Below are positions 6,423 through 52,867 of a stretch of DNA of 64,000 bases, piece by piece. Numbering within the stretch: the first letter of the stretch is position 1; every line of letters starts with the position of its first letter. The DNA comes from Bacillota bacterium (lineage in GTDB: Bacteria > Bacillota > Sulfobacillia > DUMF01), in the NCBI GenBank assembly GCA_049718765.1, contig JBNARI010000004.1:19967-83966 (forward strand), in the 5' to 3' direction. The notes under the pieces were generated by a model, which had not been told where the DNA came from, did no database searches, and saw nothing but the letters and a program-made list of their open reading frames with translations. The position numbers and the translations under genes were made by a program.

Positions 6423-6516
6423 TTGTACACGTAGACCTCCTTTGCTGCGCTGAAGCCAGGTCCAGACGTAGATGCCCGGGGAAGCCCCCGGGCAGCGAAC
6501 AAGGCAAAACAAAATC

Positions 6517-6668
6517 TGCCTTCTCCCGTCCAGACTATACTGTCGGCTCTGGAATCTCACCAGATCTACCGCCCCAAGGCGGCTCGCGGGCTAGCTCTGC
6601 TAGAGCATTACCGCCGGTCAGGAATGAAGGAAACCGAAGCTTCCTCTTCACCTTGCCCCGAAGGCTTC
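6517..6668 (-). ncRNA. FMN riboswitch (RFN element)
   Basis: Minus strand CTTCGGGGCAAGGTGAA...TTCCTGACCGGCGGT...AGCCCGCGAGC...GATCTGGTGAGATTCCAGAGCCGACAGTATAGTCTGGACGGGAGAAG; possible SD-sequestering hairpin at ~6430-6470. Confidence 0.96.
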
Positions 6669-6787
6669 AGTTCTGCTTTTATTGATATCTTTGTAGGATA
6701 ATGTATCATTGAGTTCGGAAAAGATCAAGCAGGGAACTTGTTGCGGTTTTGAGGTATGATGGATGGGAAAGCTGAGGCTGATCCCGT

Positions 6788-19356: not shown

Positions 19357-20018
19357 GTGACTTTCACTCCTTTCACCGTTTCCCAGCAACGCAGCAACTC
19401 TCTTACTGCCTCAGCCACATCTGGCTTAGACACTACTGCGCTTACAACAGCCACTCCATCTGCCCCCGCTTGTGCCACTTGGGGGAGGTTGGCCGTGTTG
19501 ATCCCTCCTATGGCCACGATTGGCAAAGAGGTAACCTCTCTAATTCGGGCAACTATGTCGGGACCGTAAACAGGGCCAGCGTCGGGCTTGGTTGATGTGG
19601 GGAACACAGGGCCCACTCCAAGGTAGTCGGCACCGTAAGCCTCTGCCAACATTGCTTCTTCTGGAGTTTCAACGGAGATGCCAATTACTTTGCTCTCACC
19701 AAGGATCTTCCTGGCGGCTTCAAGGGGTAAATCATCTTGGCCCAGGTGCACTCCATCGGCTCCTACTGCCATTGCAACATCGACTCTGTCGTTCACAATG
19801 AAGAGTGTGCCTGTGGCGGCAGTGATCTCGCGGATTGCCTTGGCAGCCTGGACCAGTTTTCGAGTGCTAGCGTTCTTGTCCCGGAGTTGGACTGCCTTGC
19901 AGCCGCCCTGTATGGCTAGGGCAACCACTTCTTCGTGGCTTCTGCCCAGGGACAGCTGGGGGTCCGTGATAACATACACTTTGAGTATCTCCCTAAGCTC
20001 TTCCCTTTGGCGCTCCAC
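19353..20018 (-). CDS. thiE: Thiamine-phosphate synthase
   Basis: VQLRDK, NDRVDVA, GVHLGQDD, GPVFPTSTK, AIGGI. Confidence 0.97.
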   Translation of the reverse strand: MERQREELREILKVYVITDPQLSLGRSHEEVVALAIQGGCKAVQLRDKNASTRKLVQAAKAIREITAATGTLFIVNDRVDVAMAVGADGVHLGQDDLPLEAARKILGESKVIGISVETPEEAMLAEAYGADYLGVGPVFPTSTKPDAGPVYGPDIVARIREVTSLPIVAIGGINTANLPQVAQAGADGVAVVSAVVSKPDVAEAVRELLRCWETVKGVKVT

Positions 20019-20057: not shown

Positions 20058-20104
20058 AATAAACCGAAGGCCGCTTCCGAAATCCTGGAAAGAAGCGGCC
20101 TTTT
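20058..20104 (-). terminator. Terminator of TPP riboswitch expression platform
   Basis: AAGGCCGCTTC...GAAGCGGCCTT stem between aptamer and thiE. Confidence 0.7.
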
Positions 20105-20111
20105 TTGTCAG

Positions 20112-20208
20112 CCGCCACTTTCCTACGCTGGTATTACCCAGATCAGGTTCAAGGGTCAGGGAATTACTTACTTCCCTTTCTCAGCCTCGAGGGCTCCCCC
20201 AGTGGCGA
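20112..20208 (-). ncRNA. TPP riboswitch
   Basis: Minus strand GGGGAGCC...GGCTGAGA...GACCCTTGAACCTGATCTGGGTAATACCAGCGTAGGAA. Confidence 0.97.
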
Positions 20209-20340
20209 CGTCAAGTTTTGGTTTTTTCAAGAAGATTATAATGCATCGACATTACAATGGTAAACTAAGGACCATGAAGGATGTTTTCCATACAACGTTG
20301 AATATTGATTTGGGTAATTGGGGATAGGGGTGATTTCATC

Positions 20341-22850: not shown

Positions 22851-23801
22851 TCATGCGCCTTTGGCCTGTAGATACTGGAGAAACCCCTTCACACTGTTGT
22901 CGAAGAAGTAGTCCTCCCGTTTCTTGAGGGCTGGGTCAAGGGCAAAGTACCCAGCCAGCAACGGATCGCGACGCAGCAAGAGCGTTTGAATCTCGGGAGC
23001 GCTGGCCTGGGTGTTCAGGTCAAGCTGCTCCTGAATCACTTCCCGCCACAGCAGCAGCTGTTGTCGGTGCATTGCCATGAGGTGCTCCGGGTGGCGGCTG
23101 AAGCCGCAGTGACCGTAGCAAATCAGGGAAGCTCCCAGTTTCATCAGCTGTTCTAGGGAAGACAGAGTTACCTCGAGAAAAAACCTGGGCGGGGTTGCTG
23201 GCCTCAGGTAGGCGCAACCATCGTCGATGAATATGCCTGCGGCCTCCCCCGCAAACATCACAGCTGAAGCGCCATGCCGGAATATGTAGCTCTGATGGTG
23301 CGGGGCGTGCCCTGGGGTAGGGACCACTGTGAGCGGTGCCGGCAATTCTTCCGCGCGGGCAAGGCTGTGCGGAGGGATTGGGTCTATTTGCCCATAACTA
23401 ATTGCCAAACTTCCAAGGGTCTTAACGCTGCCTTCCCAAAGGCGTGTTGGATCCACGAGATGCTGGTGCCCTTGGTGATGCGCCACCACACGCGCCTCCG
23501 GGTATTGGCGCAACAGAATGGCAGTGCCGCCAGCATGGTCAATATGGACATGGGTAAGAAGCACGTAGTGAACCCTTTCTACCCCCATTTGCGCCAGCGC
23601 CTGGAGGAGTTGGGGGATAGTAACCGCGGGCCCAGGGTCTACCACGAAAACAGGGCCTTTCCTGGGGTGACCTTGGATCAAGACCCAAGGCGTTATGAAC
23701 CCTTGGAAGCCTTCCACTTGGGGGTCCAGTTCAACCTTTACCAGAGTCACGCCGTCTGCTACGGGAATTGAAGAGATGCATGGTTGGCACGAGCTCTTCA
23801 A
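22851..23801 (-). CDS. MBL-fold metallo-hydrolase
   Basis: VDPGP, THVHIDHAGG (HxHxDH), TPGHAPHH, GH. Confidence 0.88.
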   Translation of the reverse strand: MKSSCQPCISSIPVADGVTLVKVELDPQVEGFQGFITPWVLIQGHPRKGPVFVVDPGPAVTIPQLLQALAQMGVERVHYVLLTHVHIDHAGGTAILLRQYPEARVVAHHQGHQHLVDPTRLWEGSVKTLGSLAISYGQIDPIPPHSLARAEELPAPLTVVPTPGHAPHHQSYIFRHGASAVMFAGEAAGIFIDDGCAYLRPATPPRFFLEVTLSSLEQLMKLGASLICYGHCGFSRHPEHLMAMHRQQLLLWREVIQEQLDLNTQASAPEIQTLLLRRDPLLAGYFALDPALKKREDYFFDNSVKGFLQYLQAKGA

Positions 23802-23890
23802 TCATTACACCTCCCCAAGTTAAGTGGTGAACGCCAGGGAGCAGTTCTCCAAACGGTGTGGTTTTTCCTGCTTTGTGAGATAGCGGTGCT

Positions 23891-23943
23891 ACATGCATGT
23901 ATACATAATCACCCCGAAAGGAAAAATGGCTTCAGTGTCGAAA
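23891..23943 (+). promoter_or_regulatory. GntR/FadR-like palindrome plus sigma-H-like promoter of dehydrogenase-TAXI operon
   Basis: ATGTATACAT palindrome (23897-23906); AAAGGAAAA-11 nt-GTCGAAA (23917-23943). Confidence 0.5.
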
Positions 23944-24008
23944 TCTTAGCTCGACAGTGAATTCGCGGAATTAGCTGATGCAGCAGCGAGCCACGGGGAG
24001 GGTGTCAA

Positions 24009-26003
24009 ATGCCAAGAGTGTTTGCAGCAACTAGCCTCAAAAGGATGGTCGTGGACGTGTTGACCAAGCTTGGCGTGGGGTGGGAACACGCGTCCACCGT
24101 GGCGGACGTGTTAGTGTCTGCTGATCTGAGGGGCGTAGACTCCCACGGCGTAGCCAGGTTGCCCATATATTGCAGGAGGATAAAGGCGGGGGCTATCAAC
24201 ACTAAGCCCTCGATCAGAGTAGTAAATGAGACGCCAGCTACGGCTGTCGTCGATGGAGACAACGGTTTTGGGCATGTGGCAGGTAAGTTCGCCATGGACC
24301 TGTGCATACGCAAGGCGAGGGAACATAGCGTTGCAGTAGTTGGGGTACGCAACTCCAACCATTTTGGGATCGGTGCGTATTATGCCATGATGGCTCTCGC
24401 GCATAACATGATAGGCTTTGCGGCCACCAACGCCTCGCCGCTCATGGCGCCGTTTGGAGGCTCAACTGCCATGCTAGGCACAAATCCTTTTTGTCTGGCC
24501 GTACCGGCTGGCAAGGAGCTACCACTGGTGCTGGATATGGCAACGAGCCAAGTTGCCAGGGGCAAGATTGAAATGTGTCTTCGGGAAGGCAAGAAAATCC
24601 CGCTGGATTGGGCCCTTGACCAAAGCGGGAAGCCTACAGACGATCCGGCTGAAGCCCTTAAAGGTACGTTGCTGCCCCTGGGAGGTCATAAAGGGTATGG
24701 CCTTTCCATGGCGGTGGACCTCTTGTGTGGATTGATGGTGGGTGCAGCTTACCTGAACCATGTGGGTTCTCTCTTCGGAAACCTGTCGCGGCCTCAAAAC
24801 GTTGGGCATTTGTTCATGGCTTTGGACGTAAGCAACTTCATGCCTGTCGAGGAGTTTGAGACCAAGATGGACGAGTACCTACGGGCAGTGAAGGCTTCGC
24901 CTAGGGCGCAAGGGGTAACCGAGATATTTGTGCCTGGCGAAATCGAGTTCAGGGCTACCAGAGAACGCCTTGCTCGTGGCATTCCGATAAAGGACGAAGT
25001 GATAGAGGAACTGCAGGAGCTCCTGCATTCAGAAGGGCTTGACATCAACGAGTACTGTGGAAACCCCAAGGCCGGCATGCCAGTAGCGAAGCCCAAGGTG
25101 CTGATCACTGAGCCCATCGACGAAGCGGCAATAGAGGGATTCAAGCAGTATTCGGACGTGACTTGTGCTTTCGATGCAGACCGTCAAGAAGTGATTCGCA
25201 TGCTGAAGGAGTACGACGCCATGGTAGTGAGGGTGAAGTTCAATATAGACCGTGAGATGATCGACTCAGGAAGCAGGCTTAGGGTCATAGCAATGAACGG
25301 CATCGGTCTGAACCACATTGACGTCAACTATGCTACTCTAAAGGGAATTGCAGTGCTAAACGTTCCAGACGCATCCATCGATTCGGTAGCGGAACTTGCC
25401 ATTGGACTGATGATAGCTCTTGCCCGGAAGGTGGTGCCTGCATTCGAATCCGTGCGGCGGGGTGAGTGGAATAAGCACGCATTCGTGGGCACGGAACTTG
25501 CGGGCAAAACCCTTGGCATAATTGCGCTAGGCAAAATTGGTTCGCGAGTGGCGAAGGTTGCTCAAGCCATGGGCATGAATGTTGTGGCTCACGACCCGTA
25601 CGTTTGCGCTGAAGCGGCAGCAAACCTTGGGGTGAAGCTTGCATCCCTGGATGAGCTGCTGTCGGTGGCCGACGTGATCAGCATTCATGCTCCTCTTACG
25701 CCAAGCACGTTCCATCTGATAAACAGGGAAGCGCTCTCCAAGGCCAAAAGGGGCGTACTGATTATCAACACTGGCAGGGGTGCAGTGGTGGACGAGGAGG
25801 CACTTTACGAGGCGCTCAAGGCCGGACACGTTGGGGGATTTGCGGCCGACGTGATGGAGGTTGAACCACCAGGAAAACACAAGCTTTTCGAACTGCCCAA
25901 TGTTGTGGTGACGCCCCACGTGGGTGGATCAACCAGTGAAGCGCAAAGGCGCATTGGGATGCGGTTGGTGGAGGACATCGGGAAAGTCCTTCTGGGAACA
26001 TAA
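24009..26003 (+). CDS. Fusion: Ldh_2-family (ComC/AllD-like) dehydrogenase + D-isomer-specific 2-hydroxyacid dehydrogenase
   Basis: N half: DSHGVARL, DGDNGFG, NSNHFG, GTNP, DMATS, GGHKGYGL, PGE. C half (from aa ~357): VAELA, IIALGKIG, HDPY, HAPLT, NTGRG, DVMEVEP, TPHVGG. No internal stop. Confidence 0.9.
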   Translation: MPRVFAATSLKRMVVDVLTKLGVGWEHASTVADVLVSADLRGVDSHGVARLPIYCRRIKAGAINTKPSIRVVNETPATAVVDGDNGFGHVAGKFAMDLCIRKAREHSVAVVGVRNSNHFGIGAYYAMMALAHNMIGFAATNASPLMAPFGGSTAMLGTNPFCLAVPAGKELPLVLDMATSQVARGKIEMCLREGKKIPLDWALDQSGKPTDDPAEALKGTLLPLGGHKGYGLSMAVDLLCGLMVGAAYLNHVGSLFGNLSRPQNVGHLFMALDVSNFMPVEEFETKMDEYLRAVKASPRAQGVTEIFVPGEIEFRATRERLARGIPIKDEVIEELQELLHSEGLDINEYCGNPKAGMPVAKPKVLITEPIDEAAIEGFKQYSDVTCAFDADRQEVIRMLKEYDAMVVRVKFNIDREMIDSGSRLRVIAMNGIGLNHIDVNYATLKGIAVLNVPDASIDSVAELAIGLMIALARKVVPAFESVRRGEWNKHAFVGTELAGKTLGIIALGKIGSRVAKVAQAMGMNVVAHDPYVCAEAAANLGVKLASLDELLSVADVISIHAPLTPSTFHLINREALSKAKRGVLIINTGRGAVVDEEALYEALKAGHVGGFAADVMEVEPPGKHKLFELPNVVVTPHVGGSTSEAQRRIGMRLVEDIGKVLLGT

Positions 26004-26040: not shown

Positions 26041-27099
26041 GTGAGGGTCAGTCGGGTGTTGGCGGGATTGATGGTGCTGTGTCTGGCTTTGTTCGTGGTA
26101 GGCTGCAGTGGAGGAGGAACGCAGCAGCAAAAGGCGGCCGAGCAACAGCAAGCCCAGCAGAAGCCAGCGGCGCCCCAGGAAATCAAGCTCAACATTGCTA
26201 CCGCGACCACTGGTGGGGTGTACTATCCCCTTGGGGGAGCTTTCGCGCAAGTGTGGAACAAGTACATCCCGGGAATGAAGGCAACTGCCCAGGCTACTGC
26301 GGGAACCCCACAGAACGTGGAGCTAATGCGTAACAAGCAGGCCGAAATCGCGTTTGGGCAGAACGGGGTGTCATATTACGCCTATAAGGGGATCGAACAG
26401 TTCCAGGGGAAACCGTACACGGACCTGAGGGCGATGACATCCTTGTATTCCAACGTGATGCACATTGTTGCGCGCAAGGCTTCCAAGATCAAGTCCGTAG
26501 CGGACTTTAAAGGCAAGAGGTTTGCGCCTGGAGCGGTGGCAAGCGCAACGGAAATCAACAGCAGGGAGATCCTGAGCATTTATGGGTTGAACTATATGAA
26601 GGATAAGGGAGAAGTGAACGTAAGAGCCGATTTCGTGGATTACAATGCGGCTGCCGACCTCATTAAGAACGGCCAAATTGACGGGTACCTCATTGCTGGT
26701 GGTATACCAACCGCTGCGGTCATGGACACCTTTGCTTCGGCAGACGTTGAACTGATTTCCCTCGAGCCCGAGAAGATCAAGGAACTCACGACCAAGTACC
26801 CATGGTATTTCGAAATAGTGATACCTCCAAATACTTACAAAGGCCAAACCAAGGAAGTCCACACTGTGGCAGTCTCTAACCTGCTGCTTTGCAGAGCTGA
26901 CTTACCTGACGACCTAGTTTATACCCTTGTGAAGACGTTGTATGACCACCACGATGAGCTTGTGGCCGCGCACAAGGCGGCGCAGGAAATGACCATCCAG
27001 AACGCCCTCAACGGAATGACCGTTCCTCTCCATCCAGGAGCTGCCAAGTTCCTCAGGGAGAAGGGCCTCAACGTAGACAAATACCTTCCACCTAAATGA
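26041..27099 (+). CDS. TAXI-family TRAP transporter solute-binding lipoprotein
   Basis: Lipobox VVGC, IATATTGGVYYPLG, TAGTPQN, VPLHPGA. Confidence 0.92.
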   Translation: MRVSRVLAGLMVLCLALFVVGCSGGGTQQQKAAEQQQAQQKPAAPQEIKLNIATATTGGVYYPLGGAFAQVWNKYIPGMKATAQATAGTPQNVELMRNKQAEIAFGQNGVSYYAYKGIEQFQGKPYTDLRAMTSLYSNVMHIVARKASKIKSVADFKGKRFAPGAVASATEINSREILSIYGLNYMKDKGEVNVRADFVDYNAAADLIKNGQIDGYLIAGGIPTAAVMDTFASADVELISLEPEKIKELTTKYPWYFEIVIPPNTYKGQTKEVHTVAVSNLLLCRADLPDDLVYTLVKTLYDHHDELVAAHKAAQEMTIQNALNGMTVPLHPGAAKFLREKGLNVDKYLPPK

Positions 27100-27117
27100 A
27101 CTAGTTGTGAAAACCAC

Positions 27118-27150
27118 TGGAGTTGCCCGGCCTGTTACCGGGCAACTCCA
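27118..27150 (+). other. Intercistronic stem-loop after SBP gene (likely mRNA stabiliser)
   Basis: TGGAGTTGCCCGG-cctgtta-CCGGGCAACTCCA, no U-tract. Confidence 0.6.
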
Positions 27151-27231
27151 AGAGGATTGGCAGTATTGGGTTTGACAGCGCGCCGCTAGTGGCGTTGTGA
27201 CTGTCGCCATCCTGGGTGGGTCAGGAAGGAG

Positions 27232-29175
27232 ATGTGTGCTAAGGTGACTCAAACTCGTGGCGAAGAGAAGGTCCTGGATGTCAACCAGATTGTGGAGAGG
27301 TTTCAAGTTGAAGCTCGGTTTAGGCAGCTTGCGGGTGCCTGGGGTAAGGTGGTTGGGTTCATTGCTATTGCCATGTCTGCATTCCAGTGGTATACGGCAG
27401 GGTTCGGGACTCTCCAGCAAATGAAGCAGCGGGGAGTACACCTTGGCTTCATGCTTGCGCTCATATTCCTGTTGTACCCAGCGAGCAAGAGGTCCCCCAA
27501 GCACAGACCCTCGTACCTAGACATACTGCTCGCGGTGGTCGGGTTCATTGGTGGTACTTACCACTTTTTTTATTACGATGCAATTGCATTGAGGGGAGGC
27601 ACTGCAAACGTCTATGACTACTTCTGGGGCGTAGTCACTCTGCTGCTGATCCTCGAGGCAACCAGACGTTGCGTGGGCAAGGAACTGTCAATCTTGGCCC
27701 TTGTGTTCCTGGCATATGGCCTGTTTGGCCACAGAATCCCAGGGATGCTTGGACACACTGGATTTACTTGGGATAGGATTGTGTACCACTTGTACATTTC
27801 CTCGGAGGGAGTGTTCGGCACAGCTCTGGGAGTGTCTGCCACCTACATTTTCATGTTCATCCTGTTTGGCGCTTTCCTGGCCGAAACTGGGATGTCCAAG
27901 TTTATCACTGAGCTCTCCATGGCTGTAGCGGGAGGCACCGCTGGCGGGCCGGCCAAGGTGGCGGTGGTTGCTAGCGCCCTGATGGGGACAATCAATGGCA
28001 GCGCAGTTGCCAACGTTGTGGGTACAGGTACCTTCACCATACCGCTGATGAAAAGCATTGGTTATGCGCCTCACTTTGCGGGTGCAGTTGAGGCTGTTGC
28101 GTCAACTGGTGGCCAGATTATGCCTCCAGTGATGGGGGCTGCTGCATTCGTCATGGCCGAGTTTCTTGGCATGCCCTACGCGAAGATCATGATTGCAGCA
28201 ATACTGCCGGCCCTGCTTTATTACCTTGCTGACTTCGTGCAGGTACATTATGAAGCAAGGAAAATCGGCTTGCTGGGCTTGCCCAGGGAGCAGTTGCCCA
28301 AGCTTGGGGTCGTAGTGCGAAACGGCTGGCACTTGTTACTTCCTTTGATCACCATCGTATACTTGCTCCTGTCTGGGAAGACCCCCCTATTTGCAGCTTT
28401 TTGGGGCACCGTGGTTACAATTGTGGCAAGCTGGTTAAAGAAGGAAACCAGATTAAGCCCTAAGGCGTTCCTGCGGGCTATGGAGTCAGGTGCAAGGGAA
28501 GCAATATCTGTGGGAATTGCGTGTGCGGTAGTGGGATTCGTCGTCGGAATCGTCACGCTAACGGGCCTTGGGTTAACTTTGGGCGACAAGATCATTGCGC
28601 TGGCAGGTGGAAGCCTGTTTGCCACCATGTTCTTTACCATGGTGCTCTGCATAATCCTGGGAATGGGACTGCCAACCACCGCTTGTTACATTGTGGCAGC
28701 TACAGTTGCAGCACCCGCGCTGATTAAGGTGGGCGTGCCCGCTCTTCCAGCTCACTTTTTTGTGTTCTACTACGCGTGCCTTGCGAACATCACGCCGCCT
28801 GTGGCGTTGGCTGCGTACGCTGGCGCAGGTCTTGCTGGTTCAAACCCCTTCAAGACTGGATGGACTGCAGTCCGCCTGGGCATTGCCGGGTTTATAGTGC
28901 CGTTCATGTTCGTGTACTCGCCCATTCTGCTGCTCCAGACCGCCAATGTGCCAGAGCTGATCCAAGCGATAATCACGTCGGTTATTGGAGTGATTTCCCT
29001 GGGCATTGGCGCGGAAGGCTTTCTCAAGGGTCACTTGTCCATCGGCGAGAGGCTCTTGTTTATCTGCGGCGCCTTGGGTCTCATGATTCCAGGCACGTTC
29101 ACTGATCTGCTGGGATTGGCGCTTGTTGCTTGCGGACTGGGCAGCCACTTGTTGCGCCATCGCACTCGGTCTTAG
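27232..29175 (+). CDS. TRAP transporter fused 4TM/12TM permease (TAXI type)
   Basis: GGPAKVAV, GSAVANV, ASTGGQIMPPVMGAAAF, GMGLPT, ITPPVALAA. Confidence 0.94.
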   Translation: MCAKVTQTRGEEKVLDVNQIVERFQVEARFRQLAGAWGKVVGFIAIAMSAFQWYTAGFGTLQQMKQRGVHLGFMLALIFLLYPASKRSPKHRPSYLDILLAVVGFIGGTYHFFYYDAIALRGGTANVYDYFWGVVTLLLILEATRRCVGKELSILALVFLAYGLFGHRIPGMLGHTGFTWDRIVYHLYISSEGVFGTALGVSATYIFMFILFGAFLAETGMSKFITELSMAVAGGTAGGPAKVAVVASALMGTINGSAVANVVGTGTFTIPLMKSIGYAPHFAGAVEAVASTGGQIMPPVMGAAAFVMAEFLGMPYAKIMIAAILPALLYYLADFVQVHYEARKIGLLGLPREQLPKLGVVVRNGWHLLLPLITIVYLLLSGKTPLFAAFWGTVVTIVASWLKKETRLSPKAFLRAMESGAREAISVGIACAVVGFVVGIVTLTGLGLTLGDKIIALAGGSLFATMFFTMVLCIILGMGLPTTACYIVAATVAAPALIKVGVPALPAHFFVFYYACLANITPPVALAAYAGAGLAGSNPFKTGWTAVRLGIAGFIVPFMFVYSPILLLQTANVPELIQAIITSVIGVISLGIGAEGFLKGHLSIGERLLFICGALGLMIPGTFTDLLGLALVACGLGSHLLRHRTRS

Positions 29176-29189
29176 TCAGGGGGCTTTGC

Positions 29190-29218
29190 TTGACACCTCC
29201 CGTAGCAGCGGGTAGAAT
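29190..29218 (+). promoter_or_regulatory. Sigma-A promoter of yceD-rpmF
   Basis: TTGACA-17 nt-TAGAAT. Confidence 0.7.
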
Positions 29219-29243
29219 TTAGCTGTCTTACGGGGGGCTTTTC

Positions 29244-29693
29244 ATGAGGATCAGTGCTCAAGAAGTGAAGAAGTGCGGTCGGGTGGCGGCGTCGTACACG
29301 ATAGCTGCCGAGGCCTTTCAACCGTACCTTGGCGAGGGAAGTACCGCCGGCCCCGGTCCTGTGGAAGTGGATGCGGAACTCATGGGTTCGGGTGTGGACG
29401 TGATCGGCAAATTCACTGCGCAGGCAAACGTGCAGCTCACGTGTGCCAGGTGCCTGGCGGCTGTGCCCTACCATCTGCGCGCTGAGTTCTGGGTTACGTT
29501 CCGACCAAGGCACGCAGCAGACCCGGAGAGCATTGCAATGTCCGGACCTTTGACTGCCGATGGCGAAGACATAGAAGTGTACTCGGGGGACGAGATAGAC
29601 CTTGACGGTGTGGTGCTTCAAAACTTGGCGCTTGCCGTGCCGTACAAGGTGGTTTGCAGCAGCGAATGCAAAGGCTTGGAGTGGAGGGATTGA
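29244..29693 (+). CDS. YceD/DUF177 family protein, short C-terminus
   Basis: CARCL, IDL...LAVPYKVVCSSECKGL; directly upstream of rpmF. Confidence 0.85.
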   Translation: MRISAQEVKKCGRVAASYTIAAEAFQPYLGEGSTAGPGPVEVDAELMGSGVDVIGKFTAQANVQLTCARCLAAVPYHLRAEFWVTFRPRHAADPESIAMSGPLTADGEDIEVYSGDEIDLDGVVLQNLALAVPYKVVCSSECKGLEWRD

Positions 29694-29696
29694 CTG

Positions 29697-29879
29697 GTGG
29701 CCGTACCTAAGAAACGCACCACTAAGTCCAAAAGGGATAAGAGAGCTGCCAATTGGAAACTTGGGCATCCCACGCTGGTAGAATGCCCACAGTGCCATGA
29801 AGCCAAGATGCCTCACAGAGTTTGTGCAAACTGTGGCTACTACGATGGCAGAGAAGTGCTCAAGCTTGAAGAGAAGTGA
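29697..29879 (+). CDS. rpmF: 50S ribosomal protein L32
   Basis: MAVPKKRTTKSKRDKR...CPQC...HRVCANCGYY. Confidence 0.98.
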   Translation: MAVPKKRTTKSKRDKRAANWKLGHPTLVECPQCHEAKMPHRVCANCGYYDGREVLKLEEK

Positions 29880-52780: not shown

Positions 52781-52867
52781 TTCTCGACAAAGGCAAACTC
52801 GCCGAAAGGCGAGGGCGCAAAACCACGGGTCTAAAGCGTAATGCCATGACAGCCGGGTTGCCGAAAG
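52781..52867 (+). ncRNA. c-di-GMP-I (GEMM) riboswitch
   Basis: GGCAAACTCGCC-GAAA-GGCGAGGGCGCAAAACC...TCTAA...ATG...GGGTTGCCG; tetraloop and receptor present. Confidence 0.94.

Follow-up and report, generated by a model that had tools for sequence, protein, structure and literature searches.

Chromohalobacter salexigens inverts (S)-sulfolactate with an NAD+-dependent SlcC and an NADPH-dependent (R)-sulfolactate dehydrogenase, after which SuyAB cleaves the product (PMC11193023; statements taken from published work rest throughout on excerpts of the papers). SlcC is placed within or next to the SERA clade of the 2-hydroxyacid dehydrogenases (2HADHs), a family that is D-specific and whose SerA-type members can reduce 2-oxoglutarate (PMC6303947). 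Enzymes of the Ldh_2 family form or consume (S)-malate, (R)-sulfolactate, (S)-2-hydroxyglutarate and (S)-ureidoglycolate (PMC5695019; PMC3527362), and those of the ComC type reduce sulfopyruvate, oxaloacetate and 2-oxoglutarate. We describe here a gene from a Bacillota bacterium (Sulfobacillia; GenBank assembly GCA_049718765.1, contig JBNARI010000004.1) that joins a complete Ldh_2 enzyme to a complete 2HADH in one chain, directly upstream of genes for a TAXI-family TRAP importer. It lies in a stretch of 64,000 nucleotides (positions 19,967 to 83,966 of the contig), here called the window. We read the protein, with a probability of about 0.5, as an L-specific Ldh_2 and a D-specific 2HADH that would share one oxo acid and NAD(H), and that would either invert a 2-hydroxyacid or funnel both of its enantiomers into the oxo acid.

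The initial annotation had claimed one unbroken 664-residue open reading frame with two dehydrogenase domains, and the list of open reading frames together with Pfam confirms this (Table 1). Ldh_2 spans residues 7–336 (E = 7.6e-138) and 2-Hacid_dh residues 364–662 (E = 9e-29), with 2-Hacid_dh_C nested at residues 465–639 (E = 3.8e-63). The Ldh_2 match (PF02615) scores 459.6 bits against a gathering score of 38.8 and covers profile positions 3–333 of 333; the two C-terminal matches, at 100.3 and 212.5 bits, also exceed their Pfam gathering scores. The alignment to the Methanocaldococcus jannaschii enzyme (PDB 2x06) ends at query residue 349, equivalent to residue 342 of the 344 in that chain, and the 2-Hacid domain begins at about residues 361–363 (the alignment to the Pyrococcus horikoshii enzyme 1wwk starts at about 361). 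The linker was therefore set at about residues 350–362. Met357, encoded by an internal ATG at 25077–25079, lies inside it; as had been noted at the outset, no clear Shine-Dalgarno sequence precedes this ATG, none at least that compares with those of the three real starts (GGGGAGGG, GGGAGG and GGAAGGAG). The catalytic motifs listed at the same time are all present: SHG 45–47 with R50, NHFG 117–120 and KGYGL 228–232 in the N-terminal half (N-half), and NTGR 587–590, E619–P620 and TPH 635–637 in the C-terminal half (C-half).

Among 5.8 billion protein clusters, a near-length search gave 3392 hits, and in the best 120 of these both domain types occur in only two, the window protein and a protein of 665 residues (P0002) that is 81% identical to it from end to end. 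Identity is 80% in the N-half and 85% in the C-half; the linker has diverged in sequence and differs in length by one residue. A further protein of 665 residues from another contig (P0391, same cluster as P0002) matches P0002 at 657 of 665 positions, with two of the differences in the linker. When the search was confined to residues 290–430, which span the junction, the same two fusion clusters were the only ones among 338 candidates. When 1.84 billion representatives were scanned exhaustively with HMMER, none of the best 150 proteins matched both halves; this library did not return the window fusion either, and fusions may hide in it under single-domain representatives. Its sole match in more than one stretch (P0197, 777 residues, three matched stretches) is a tandem of two Ldh_2 domains, a further uncommon architecture for this family. 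No fusion turned up among 40 same-class relatives or 400 other genomes of the phylum. That the genome is a draft of 55 contigs would leave room for a missed stop codon or frameshift, introduced by assembly or sequencing. Such an artefact is highly improbable, because three distinct fused sequences lie on three contigs from two sources; their linkers vary in sequence, and in length by one residue, and the frame at the junction stays open in both P0002 and P0391. The fusion is thus genuine, conserved and very rare.

Quick IQ-TREE phylogenies, one for each half and with Shimodaira–Hasegawa-like approximate likelihood ratio (SH-aLRT) support, place the fused sequences as sisters in both trees (support 99 and 100). 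The C-half is nested inside a clade of 14 rows of unfused orthologues (support 100). Taken together with the sister placement, this indicates that the fusion is derived and arose once. The distribution is patchy, with none in the same-class relatives (0 of 40) and orthologues in a single family (f51) among the 400 other genomes of the phylum. Recent horizontal transfer was considered from base composition and rejected, the GC content being flat at 52–58%.

Pattern scans and genome searches located the unfused parts in that other Bacillota family. In one genome (G222, locus L017) the permease and solute-binding protein (SBP) genes are divergent from an Ldh_2 gene followed by a 2-Hacid_dh gene, the same order as in the fusion; the junction there consists of a stop codon, a spacer of about 150 nt and a restart with GGAGGAGG and GTG. 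The second (G408, L018) has the reverse order, SBP, permease, 2-Hacid_dh and Ldh_2. In a third (G254) the SBP and permease genes are again divergent from Ldh_2, and the 2-Hacid_dh gene lies 3 kb off, behind trkHA. Identity to the window parts is 58% for Ldh_2 and 66–71% for 2-Hacid_dh; for the SBP it is 80% (L017) and 60% (L018), and for the permease 75% and 63%. The orthologous TAXI-TRAP adjoins the N-half orthologue at five of six loci, and four of the five genomes of the family that hold an orthologue have both dehydrogenases. The window gene is therefore a Rosetta-stone fusion of a gene pair that stands separately elsewhere beside a TAXI-TRAP importer.

The N-half was mapped onto the ureidoglycolate dehydrogenase AllD, for which a published study, available to us in excerpt, supplies the essential and cofactor-binding residues. 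It keeps S45, H46, R50, Y54, H118, GTNP 157–160, D176 and K228; among these, H46/H118, R50, T158/P160, D176 and K228 correspond to His44/His116, Arg48, Thr156/Pro158, Asp174 and Lys224 of AllD. The cofactor motif, PGEIE at 309–313, is of the NAD(H) type: the same motif is described for the NADH-preferring M. jannaschii ComC, and an Arg-Arg pair for the NADPH-dependent DpkA. The substrate shell is A142–S143, where AllD has S-D and ComC has T-E. The best solved match is 2x06 (306 bits, E = 2.7e-90). The best NCBIfam match is sulfolac_dhydr (L-sulfolactate dehydrogenase ComC, NF040650), at 345.5 bits against a cut-off of 500, and no NCBIfam equivalog cut-off is reached. The motifs ATN(A/T)SPLMAPFGG and GSLFGxxxRPQNVGH mark a subfamily that the N-half shares with the TAXI-linked orthologues. 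A function as ureidoglycolate dehydrogenase had been suggested by the carbamate kinase and xanthine/uracil permease genes upstream, and by the ornithine transcarbamylase and carbamate kinase genes near one orthologous Ldh_2 gene (G058). It was rejected, since the AllD shell residues S140, D141, M251 and R259 are replaced by A142, S143, L255 and Q263, and since the scores fall under both AllD cut-offs (TIGR03175, 258.4 against 496.2; NF011599, 270 against 356).

In the C-half the catalytic triad R590, E619 and H637 is intact and the NAD-specifying D529 is kept. The closest solved structure is 1wwk (262.6 bits) and the SERA subfamily is the best match. The phosphate site of phosphoglycerate dehydrogenase (PGDH) consists of an Arg-Ser pair (β3–α3), an Arg of the β4–α4 loop (types I and IIIH/K) and an Arg or Lys of the other subunit (PMC6303947). 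Here this site is altered: the pair reads R409–V410, with the Ser lost, the loop Arg is replaced by M429 in IAMNGIGLNHID, and K490 is kept. As signatures, VRS has become VRV, ARAGVGLDN has become AMNGIGLNH and GxGxxG has become AxGxxG. The R409–V410/M429/K490 pattern is common to all seven close members of the clade, which belongs to a wider one of 42 rows with the consensus GMAGIGLNHID (support 97), placed outside the true SerA rows. The loop Arg is retained in true SerA proteins, in the suyAB-linked enzymes discussed below and in the genome's own SerA, a protein of 573 residues with PGDH_inter (allosteric substrate-binding, ASB) and ACT domains and the motifs VRS and GRAGVGVDN, encoded beside a SerC-like gene. 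The score of the C-half against the SerA family TIGR01327 is 361.6 bits, below the cut-off of 454, with profile positions 1–303 of 525 covered. Judged by this remodelled site, whose Arg is kept in both groups of comparison enzymes, the C-half is neither a canonical housekeeping PGDH nor SlcC-like. It probably still recognizes a distal anionic group.

The SBP gene starts 37 nt downstream of the fusion and the permease gene 132 nt downstream of the SBP gene. Both products exceed their NCBIfam cut-offs and the two genes are adjacent, as in a TAXI-TRAP system. No terminator-like site was found between the fusion and the transporter genes, and a promoter and terminator scan of the region gave counts no higher than in shuffled sequence. 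Transcription of the fusion together with the importer forms part of our preferred explanation, and the even odds given above apply to the two jointly. The nearest solved relative of the SBP is a Thermus glutamate/glutamine binder. Its pocket was mapped through the ligand contacts of Vibrio cholerae GluP, with an offset of 28 between chain and published numbering (PMC11574862; PMC12718363). At GluP positions 45, 75, 93, 123 and 125 the SBP has Y-T-Q-Y-N, so that Y45 and Q93 are unchanged, S75 is replaced by Thr and E125 by Asn. According to the same papers, E125 holds the ligand's α-amino group, and V. cholerae VCA0144, which has the same Asn, binds neither Glu nor Gln. The pocket is common to all five orthologous SBPs. 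The genome itself supplies a control: its TAXI protein from a formiminoglutamate/histidine cluster has Asp at the E125 position, and the TAXI proteins beside its other 2HADH clusters have neutral residues there. The SBP thus looks like a glutamate binder without the amino-group contact, which would suit a glutamate-shaped ligand that lacks the amino group, such as 2-hydroxyglutarate or 2-oxoglutarate. The pocket therefore hints at a 2-hydroxy or 2-oxo dicarboxylate as the imported ligand.

The cluster that served as the control (L034, G000:C23, 2510–9921) holds a TAXI-TRAP amid genes for an arginase-family (formiminoglutamase-like) protein, glutamate formiminotransferase, formate–tetrahydrofolate ligase and cyclodeaminase. 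This system, whose SBP has an acidic residue at the amino-group position, may import glutamate or an intermediate of histidine degradation.

From these data we propose the following scheme. The TAXI-TRAP would import a 2-hydroxy or 2-oxo acid that is anionic and probably dicarboxylic, and both active sites would work on C2 of this same acid. In one half an enantiomer or epimer would be oxidized to the 2-oxo acid; the partner half would reduce this 2-oxo acid to the opposite configuration, reusing the fresh NADH. Either the stereocentre would be inverted, or both enantiomers would be funnelled into one oxo acid. At the level of families, one open reading frame appears to encode an L-specific and a D-specific dehydrogenase together; opposite stereospecificities are predicted from family membership, and both halves look NAD(H)-type. 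The shared substrate, its identity and the net reaction we infer, a common oxo acid having indirect support from the conserved gene pairing and from the docking described below. The most likely class is a dicarboxylic 2-hydroxy/2-oxo acid, with 2-hydroxyglutarate/2-oxoglutarate ranked first, malate/oxaloacetate second and sulfolactate unlikely. The initial annotation had proposed stereo-inversion with sulfolactate as the precedent. Its general idea, L- and D-specific enzymes acting on one oxo acid, remains plausible and is favoured by the rare architecture and by families of opposite stereospecificity; sulfolactate as the substrate is not supported for this protein.

The two halves were folded as two separate chains, from alignments of 39 rows (N-half) and 42 rows (C-half) and with three controls, and docked with a score of 0.65 against 0.01 for the best control. 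Of 80 solved complexes 58 attain the mark that this score passes, and of 110 mismatched pairs 2 do, a rough guide in that our own alignments were used. Three runs share at least 80% of their contacts, and the partner's predicted local distance difference test score (pLDDT) is at least 91. The predicted contacts involve residues 40, 127–131, 169–172 and 314–324 of the N-half and, in fusion numbering, 425, 438–450 and 656–663 of the C-half; they border on the cofactor motifs D176 and PGEIE and on the β4–α4 active-site loop. The model supports binding between the halves but does not show it. We know of no solved complex between an Ldh_2 enzyme and a 2HADH. Docking as predicted would favour hand-over of the oxo acid. 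A more tentative proposal, possible rather than probable, is that the protein is a self-sufficient, NAD(H)-recycling racemase or C2-epimerase whose docked halves, of unrelated folds, pass the 2-oxo acid and in effect the hydride, giving redox-neutral inversion of an imported dicarboxylic 2-hydroxy acid such as 2-hydroxyglutarate or malate. In that event the unfused orthologues would form the same complex non-covalently.

Several observations weigh against the shared-substrate scheme and its tentative extension. The N-half is placed beside, not within, a TAXI-linked clade of nine rows (joining node 88), and it is the most diverged of the four parts (58%). The operon encodes no enzyme specific for one enantiomer, and the genome already has a LarA-type racemase homologue on another contig (C14), nearest to malate racemase (315 bits, cut-off 500). 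The docking alignments were unpaired. In the genome G384 an Ldh_2 that lies inside the TAXI-linked clade is adjoined by SucCD, and the oxidoreductase there is of the indolepyruvate type, not the 2-oxoglutarate type; this neighbourhood gives no confirmation of 2-oxoglutarate. In G058, where the SBP and permease genes are divergent from Ldh_2, the 2-Hacid_dh gene lies 23 kb off beside different regulators. A metagenome locus (L020) has a C-half orthologue with no Ldh_2 gene within 8 kb; the next genes encode a second D-2HADH, a DUF362 protein and a four-carbon acid-sugar kinase. The spacing in G058 and the setting of L020 suggest that the C-half type can act outside the pair.

The same loci bear on an explanation in which the halves carry out two distinct redox steps, one after the other, in a single catabolic route. 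They would act at different carbons or on different intermediates, for instance of an acid sugar or a polyhydroxy acid, and not at one stereocentre, and the fusion would couple only flux and NAD(H). A second 2HADH resembling glyoxylate reductase (452 bits, cut-off 455) comes after the C-half orthologue in G058, G254 and L020; in G058 and L020 genes for the DUF362 protein, the kinase (SBD_N/NBD_C) and IclR come after it as well. The window genome, too, repeatedly groups TAXI-TRAP, 2HADH, HMGL-like aldolase and zinc-dependent alcohol dehydrogenase genes in multi-step clusters, and a distant Ldh_2–2HADH pair in G081, between mannose-type phosphotransferase system (PTS) genes and a 2-keto-3-deoxy-6-phosphogluconate (KDPG) aldolase gene, stands in a sugar-acid setting. 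However, the window operon consists of the fusion and the transporter only, and the genome has no orthologue of the DUF362 protein or of the acid-sugar kinase. With only 31% identity and a different pocket, the SBP of L020 would serve another ligand, and the precedent for this exact pair of families is stereo-inversion. We consider consecutive steps doubtful and prefer a shared oxo acid.

Pairing of Ldh_2 with 2-Hacid_dh recurs in at least four contexts. The distant pair of G081 (37–39% identity; L028, G081:C1, 9132–11195, minus strand) runs from Ldh_2 to 2-Hacid_dh in one frame, interrupted by a single TAA, and is thus a near-fusion; its neighbours are a LevR-like sigma-54 activator, the mannose-type PTS genes, the KDPG aldolase and a 6-phosphogluconate dehydrogenase-like protein. 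In G384 the pairing surrounds a LarA homologue. That cluster (L029, G384:C5, 11058–12956) comprises SucCD, a 2HADH, a group-22 nickel-pincer isomerase, Ldh_2 and an acid-sugar-dehydratase-like protein of the enolase superfamily; the α subunit of its indolepyruvate-ferredoxin oxidoreductase appears to extend over three consecutive open reading frames, which may reflect either frameshifts or a truly split gene. The excerpts of PMC11770544 make no mention of a function for nickel-pincer nucleotide (NPN) isomerase group 22. The window genome itself repeats TAXI-TRAP and/or GntR/FCD regulator genes with a D-2HADH and an HMGL-like enzyme of the aldolase/synthase type on four contigs (C1/L031, C27/L032, C14/L016 and C17/L033), often with zinc-dependent alcohol dehydrogenases or M24/M20 peptidases.

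Genes in one frame with one TAA between them, as in G081, offer an easy route to fusion, and the halves might be unrelated neighbours that became joined when a stop codon was lost. The C-half would then be a short type III PGDH or a general 2-oxoacid reductase, with no substrate in common with the Ldh_2 half. PGDH is indeed the top-scoring named family for the C-half, and relatives are annotated as 'D-3-phosphoglycerate dehydrogenase / 2-oxoglutarate reductase'. We regard this as unlikely. The genome already has the canonical SerA of 573 residues beside a SerC-like gene, and in the C-half clade V410 and M429 replace phosphate-contacting residues of type I/III PGDHs. Moreover, the gene pair and its transporter are conserved across genomes, the fusion has been kept across at least 19% sequence divergence, and the docking test was passed.

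A further context concerns sulfolactate. Two same-class relatives (G007 and G034) have genes for an SSF transporter, an SAF protein, a GD_AH protein, 2-Hacid_dh, Ldh_2 and GntR. These putative sulfolactate clusters (L011, G007:C189, 1730–7740; L012, G034:C1, 7474–13351), with a SuyA-like SAF protein of 94 residues and a GntR/FCD regulator, contain an unfused SlcC/ComC-type pair in Bacillota. Their GD_AH proteins are 57–64% identical to a discrete plasmid-borne group from Paracoccus and Cupriavidus. The gene of this group follows hpsN/hpsO in Cupriavidus pinatubonensis and in Paracoccus adjoins an exporter annotated as 'putative sulfate exporter family transporter'; the group to which the G007 and G034 proteins belong is SuyAB. 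On the plasmids of Paracoccus versutus and C. pinatubonensis (L021/L022) the pntAB transhydrogenase genes adjoin suyAB, an arrangement that fits an inversion of sulfolactate or 2,3-dihydroxypropane-1-sulfonate (DHPS) of which one step uses NAD+ and the other NADPH. The C. salexigens precedent invoked at the outset is sound and in print (PMC11193023), and an unfused pair of the kind is found in the suyAB clusters of two relatives.

For the fusion itself, a sulfolactate racemase, ComC and SlcC in one chain working through sulfopyruvate, is more unlikely still. Several points favour it. In both NCBIfam and the PDB the N-half matches an L-sulfolactate dehydrogenase best; the C-half matches the SERA clade, within or next to which SlcC is placed; G007 and G034 have suyAB clusters with 2-Hacid_dh and Ldh_2; and R409 and K490 are retained in the anion pocket. 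Nevertheless, both equivalog cut-offs are missed (345.5 against 500 and 361.6 against 454), the halves are only 36–38% identical to the suyAB-linked pair, and both domain trees, which the initial annotation had suggested as a check, separate them from it with support 100. The motifs differ accordingly: the suyAB-linked pair has THGVSRL/TNSPPG and GRLGVGLDN, the fusion SHGVARL/TNASPL and AMNGIGLNH. The genome, estimated as 95.7% complete, has no SuyB orthologue; its sole pair of SAF and GD_AH genes (contig C14) is 39–41% identical to SuyAB (GD_AH 39%), in the lower tier of that comparison. Four sulfonate markers stay under their cut-offs in the genome: sulfopyruvate decarboxylase β (38 bits), Xsc (319 against 676), DsrA (18) and AsrC (32). 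The fusion is linked neither to SuyAB nor to another consumer of the inverted enantiomer, and its halves are not orthologous to the suyAB-linked pair.

The features of the locus are collected in Table 1. Upstream of the leader, on the opposite strand, lies a gene for a metallo-β-lactamase (MBL)-fold hydrolase (22851–23801, minus strand). It was rejected as a conserved partner, being only 22% identical to the MBL protein beside the G058 orthologue. Further upstream are the xanthine/uracil permease and carbamate kinase genes and a thiamine cluster controlled by a thiamine pyrophosphate (TPP) riboswitch. The leader contains, at 23890–23906, two overlapping perfect palindromes, TACATGCATGTA and ATGTATACAT. 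As evidence for an operator they were set aside: ATGTATACAT occurs in a single copy in the genome and neither palindrome is kept in the orthologous leaders. No Rfam family matches the leader. Elsewhere in the window three riboswitch aptamers pass their Rfam gathering scores: FMN at 6514–6669 (minus), TPP at 20103–20210 (minus), which precedes thiE-thiW-thiC on the minus strand, and c-di-GMP-I at 52783–52866 (plus). Opposite the end of the permease gene an open reading frame of 214 residues (29172–29816, minus), Arg/His-rich, of low complexity and with no family match, is probably not a gene. A promoter-like near-consensus site, TTGACA-17-TAGAAT, lies at 29190–29218 (plus).

Table 1. Positions in the window of the fusion gene, its parts and the adjoining transporter genes.
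Feature	Position	Strand	Basis
Operon leader	23802..24008	+	Shine-Dalgarno GGGGAGGG 7 nt before the fusion ATG
Fusion gene, one 664-aa open reading frame	24009..26003	+	ATG start, zero internal stops
N-half, complete Ldh_2 (LDH2/MDH2), ComC/MdhII-like, predicted L-specific; aa 1–349	24009..25055	+	Pfam, NCBIfam, PDB 2x06
Inter-domain linker, about aa 350–362 (~14 residues), CGNPKAGMPVAKP	25056..25094	+	Alignment ends of both halves
C-half, complete D-isomer 2-hydroxyacid dehydrogenase, SerA-like without regulatory domains; aa 363–664 and stop	25095..26003	+	Pfam, NCBIfam, PDB 1wwk
TAXI-family TRAP solute-binding lipoprotein, 352 aa, lipobox FVVGC	26041..27099	+	Pfam NMT1_3; TIGR02122, 323 bits against 84.35; signal peptide
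Inverted repeat, 15-bp stem, in the SBP–permease spacer	27117..27151	.	Scored terminator-like on the minus strand
Fused DctQ-DctM TRAP permease, 647 aa	27232..29175	+	Pfam DctM; TIGR02123 TRAP_fused, 750.9 bits against 320.65

Whichever substrate applies, the fusion ties a widespread, generically annotated clade of short 'SerA-like' dehydrogenases with a Met pocket, a ComC-like Ldh_2 clade and one TAXI-TRAP importer, three families of which little is understood, to a common, testable substrate. It also advises caution in annotation: PGDH is not a safe label for members of the C-half clade, nor is sulfolactate or malate dehydrogenase for those of the N-half clade. Cofactor-neutral, channelled systems for deracemization are engineered by biocatalysis groups. 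Should the tentative racemase proposal with channelling be correct, evolution would also have built a cofactor-neutral, channelled inversion in one chain. It would then represent a third natural route to the racemization of 2-hydroxyacids, beside the nickel-pincer LarA and the enolase-superfamily racemases.

Compared with known enzymes, the N-half has the catalytic His/Arg/His and PGEIE in common with M. jannaschii MJ1425 (2x06). That ComC enzyme, as far as the excerpts describe it, is a free-standing dimer with a T-E shell, whereas the N-half has A142–S143 and a different loop at 246–266. With type III (IIIH) PGDH (1wwk) and the SERA subfamily the C-half shares a two-domain core of about 300 residues without ASB or ACT domains, the Arg-Glu-His triad and the NAD-specifying Asp, but it differs from type IIIH PGDH in VRV, in AMNGIGLNH (Arg to Met) and in AxGxxG. 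The LarA nickel-pincer racemases and epimerases, which include those of malate, 2-hydroxyglutarate and lactate, follow the same proposed logic, transient oxidation at C2 and return of the hydride to the other face (PMC11770544). They do so with one active site, a tethered NPN cofactor and an unrelated fold, in place of two NAD(H) dehydrogenase sites on one chain. HpsO and HpsP, which invert (S)-DHPS in C. pinatubonensis, are likewise described as two dehydrogenases acting via an oxo intermediate; they belong to other families, act on an alcohol, use two cofactors and are unfused. The closest counterpart remains the SlcC and ComC pair of C. salexigens, alike in combining a SERA-like D-2HADH with an Ldh_2 enzyme for inversion via a 2-oxo acid (PMC11193023; PMC6303947). 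There two proteins, linked to SuyAB, oxidize with NAD+ and reduce with NADPH, and the two cofactors make the inversion directional. In the literature searched (titles and the openings of abstracts) no natural single-chain Ldh_2–2HADH enzyme is described. Stereo-inversion by two dehydrogenases is thus already known, and what the fusion adds to it is a natural version in one chain, made from a distinct SerA-like clade with a Met pocket and a distinct ComC-like clade, tied to a TAXI-TRAP importer and with both halves apparently of the NAD(H) type.

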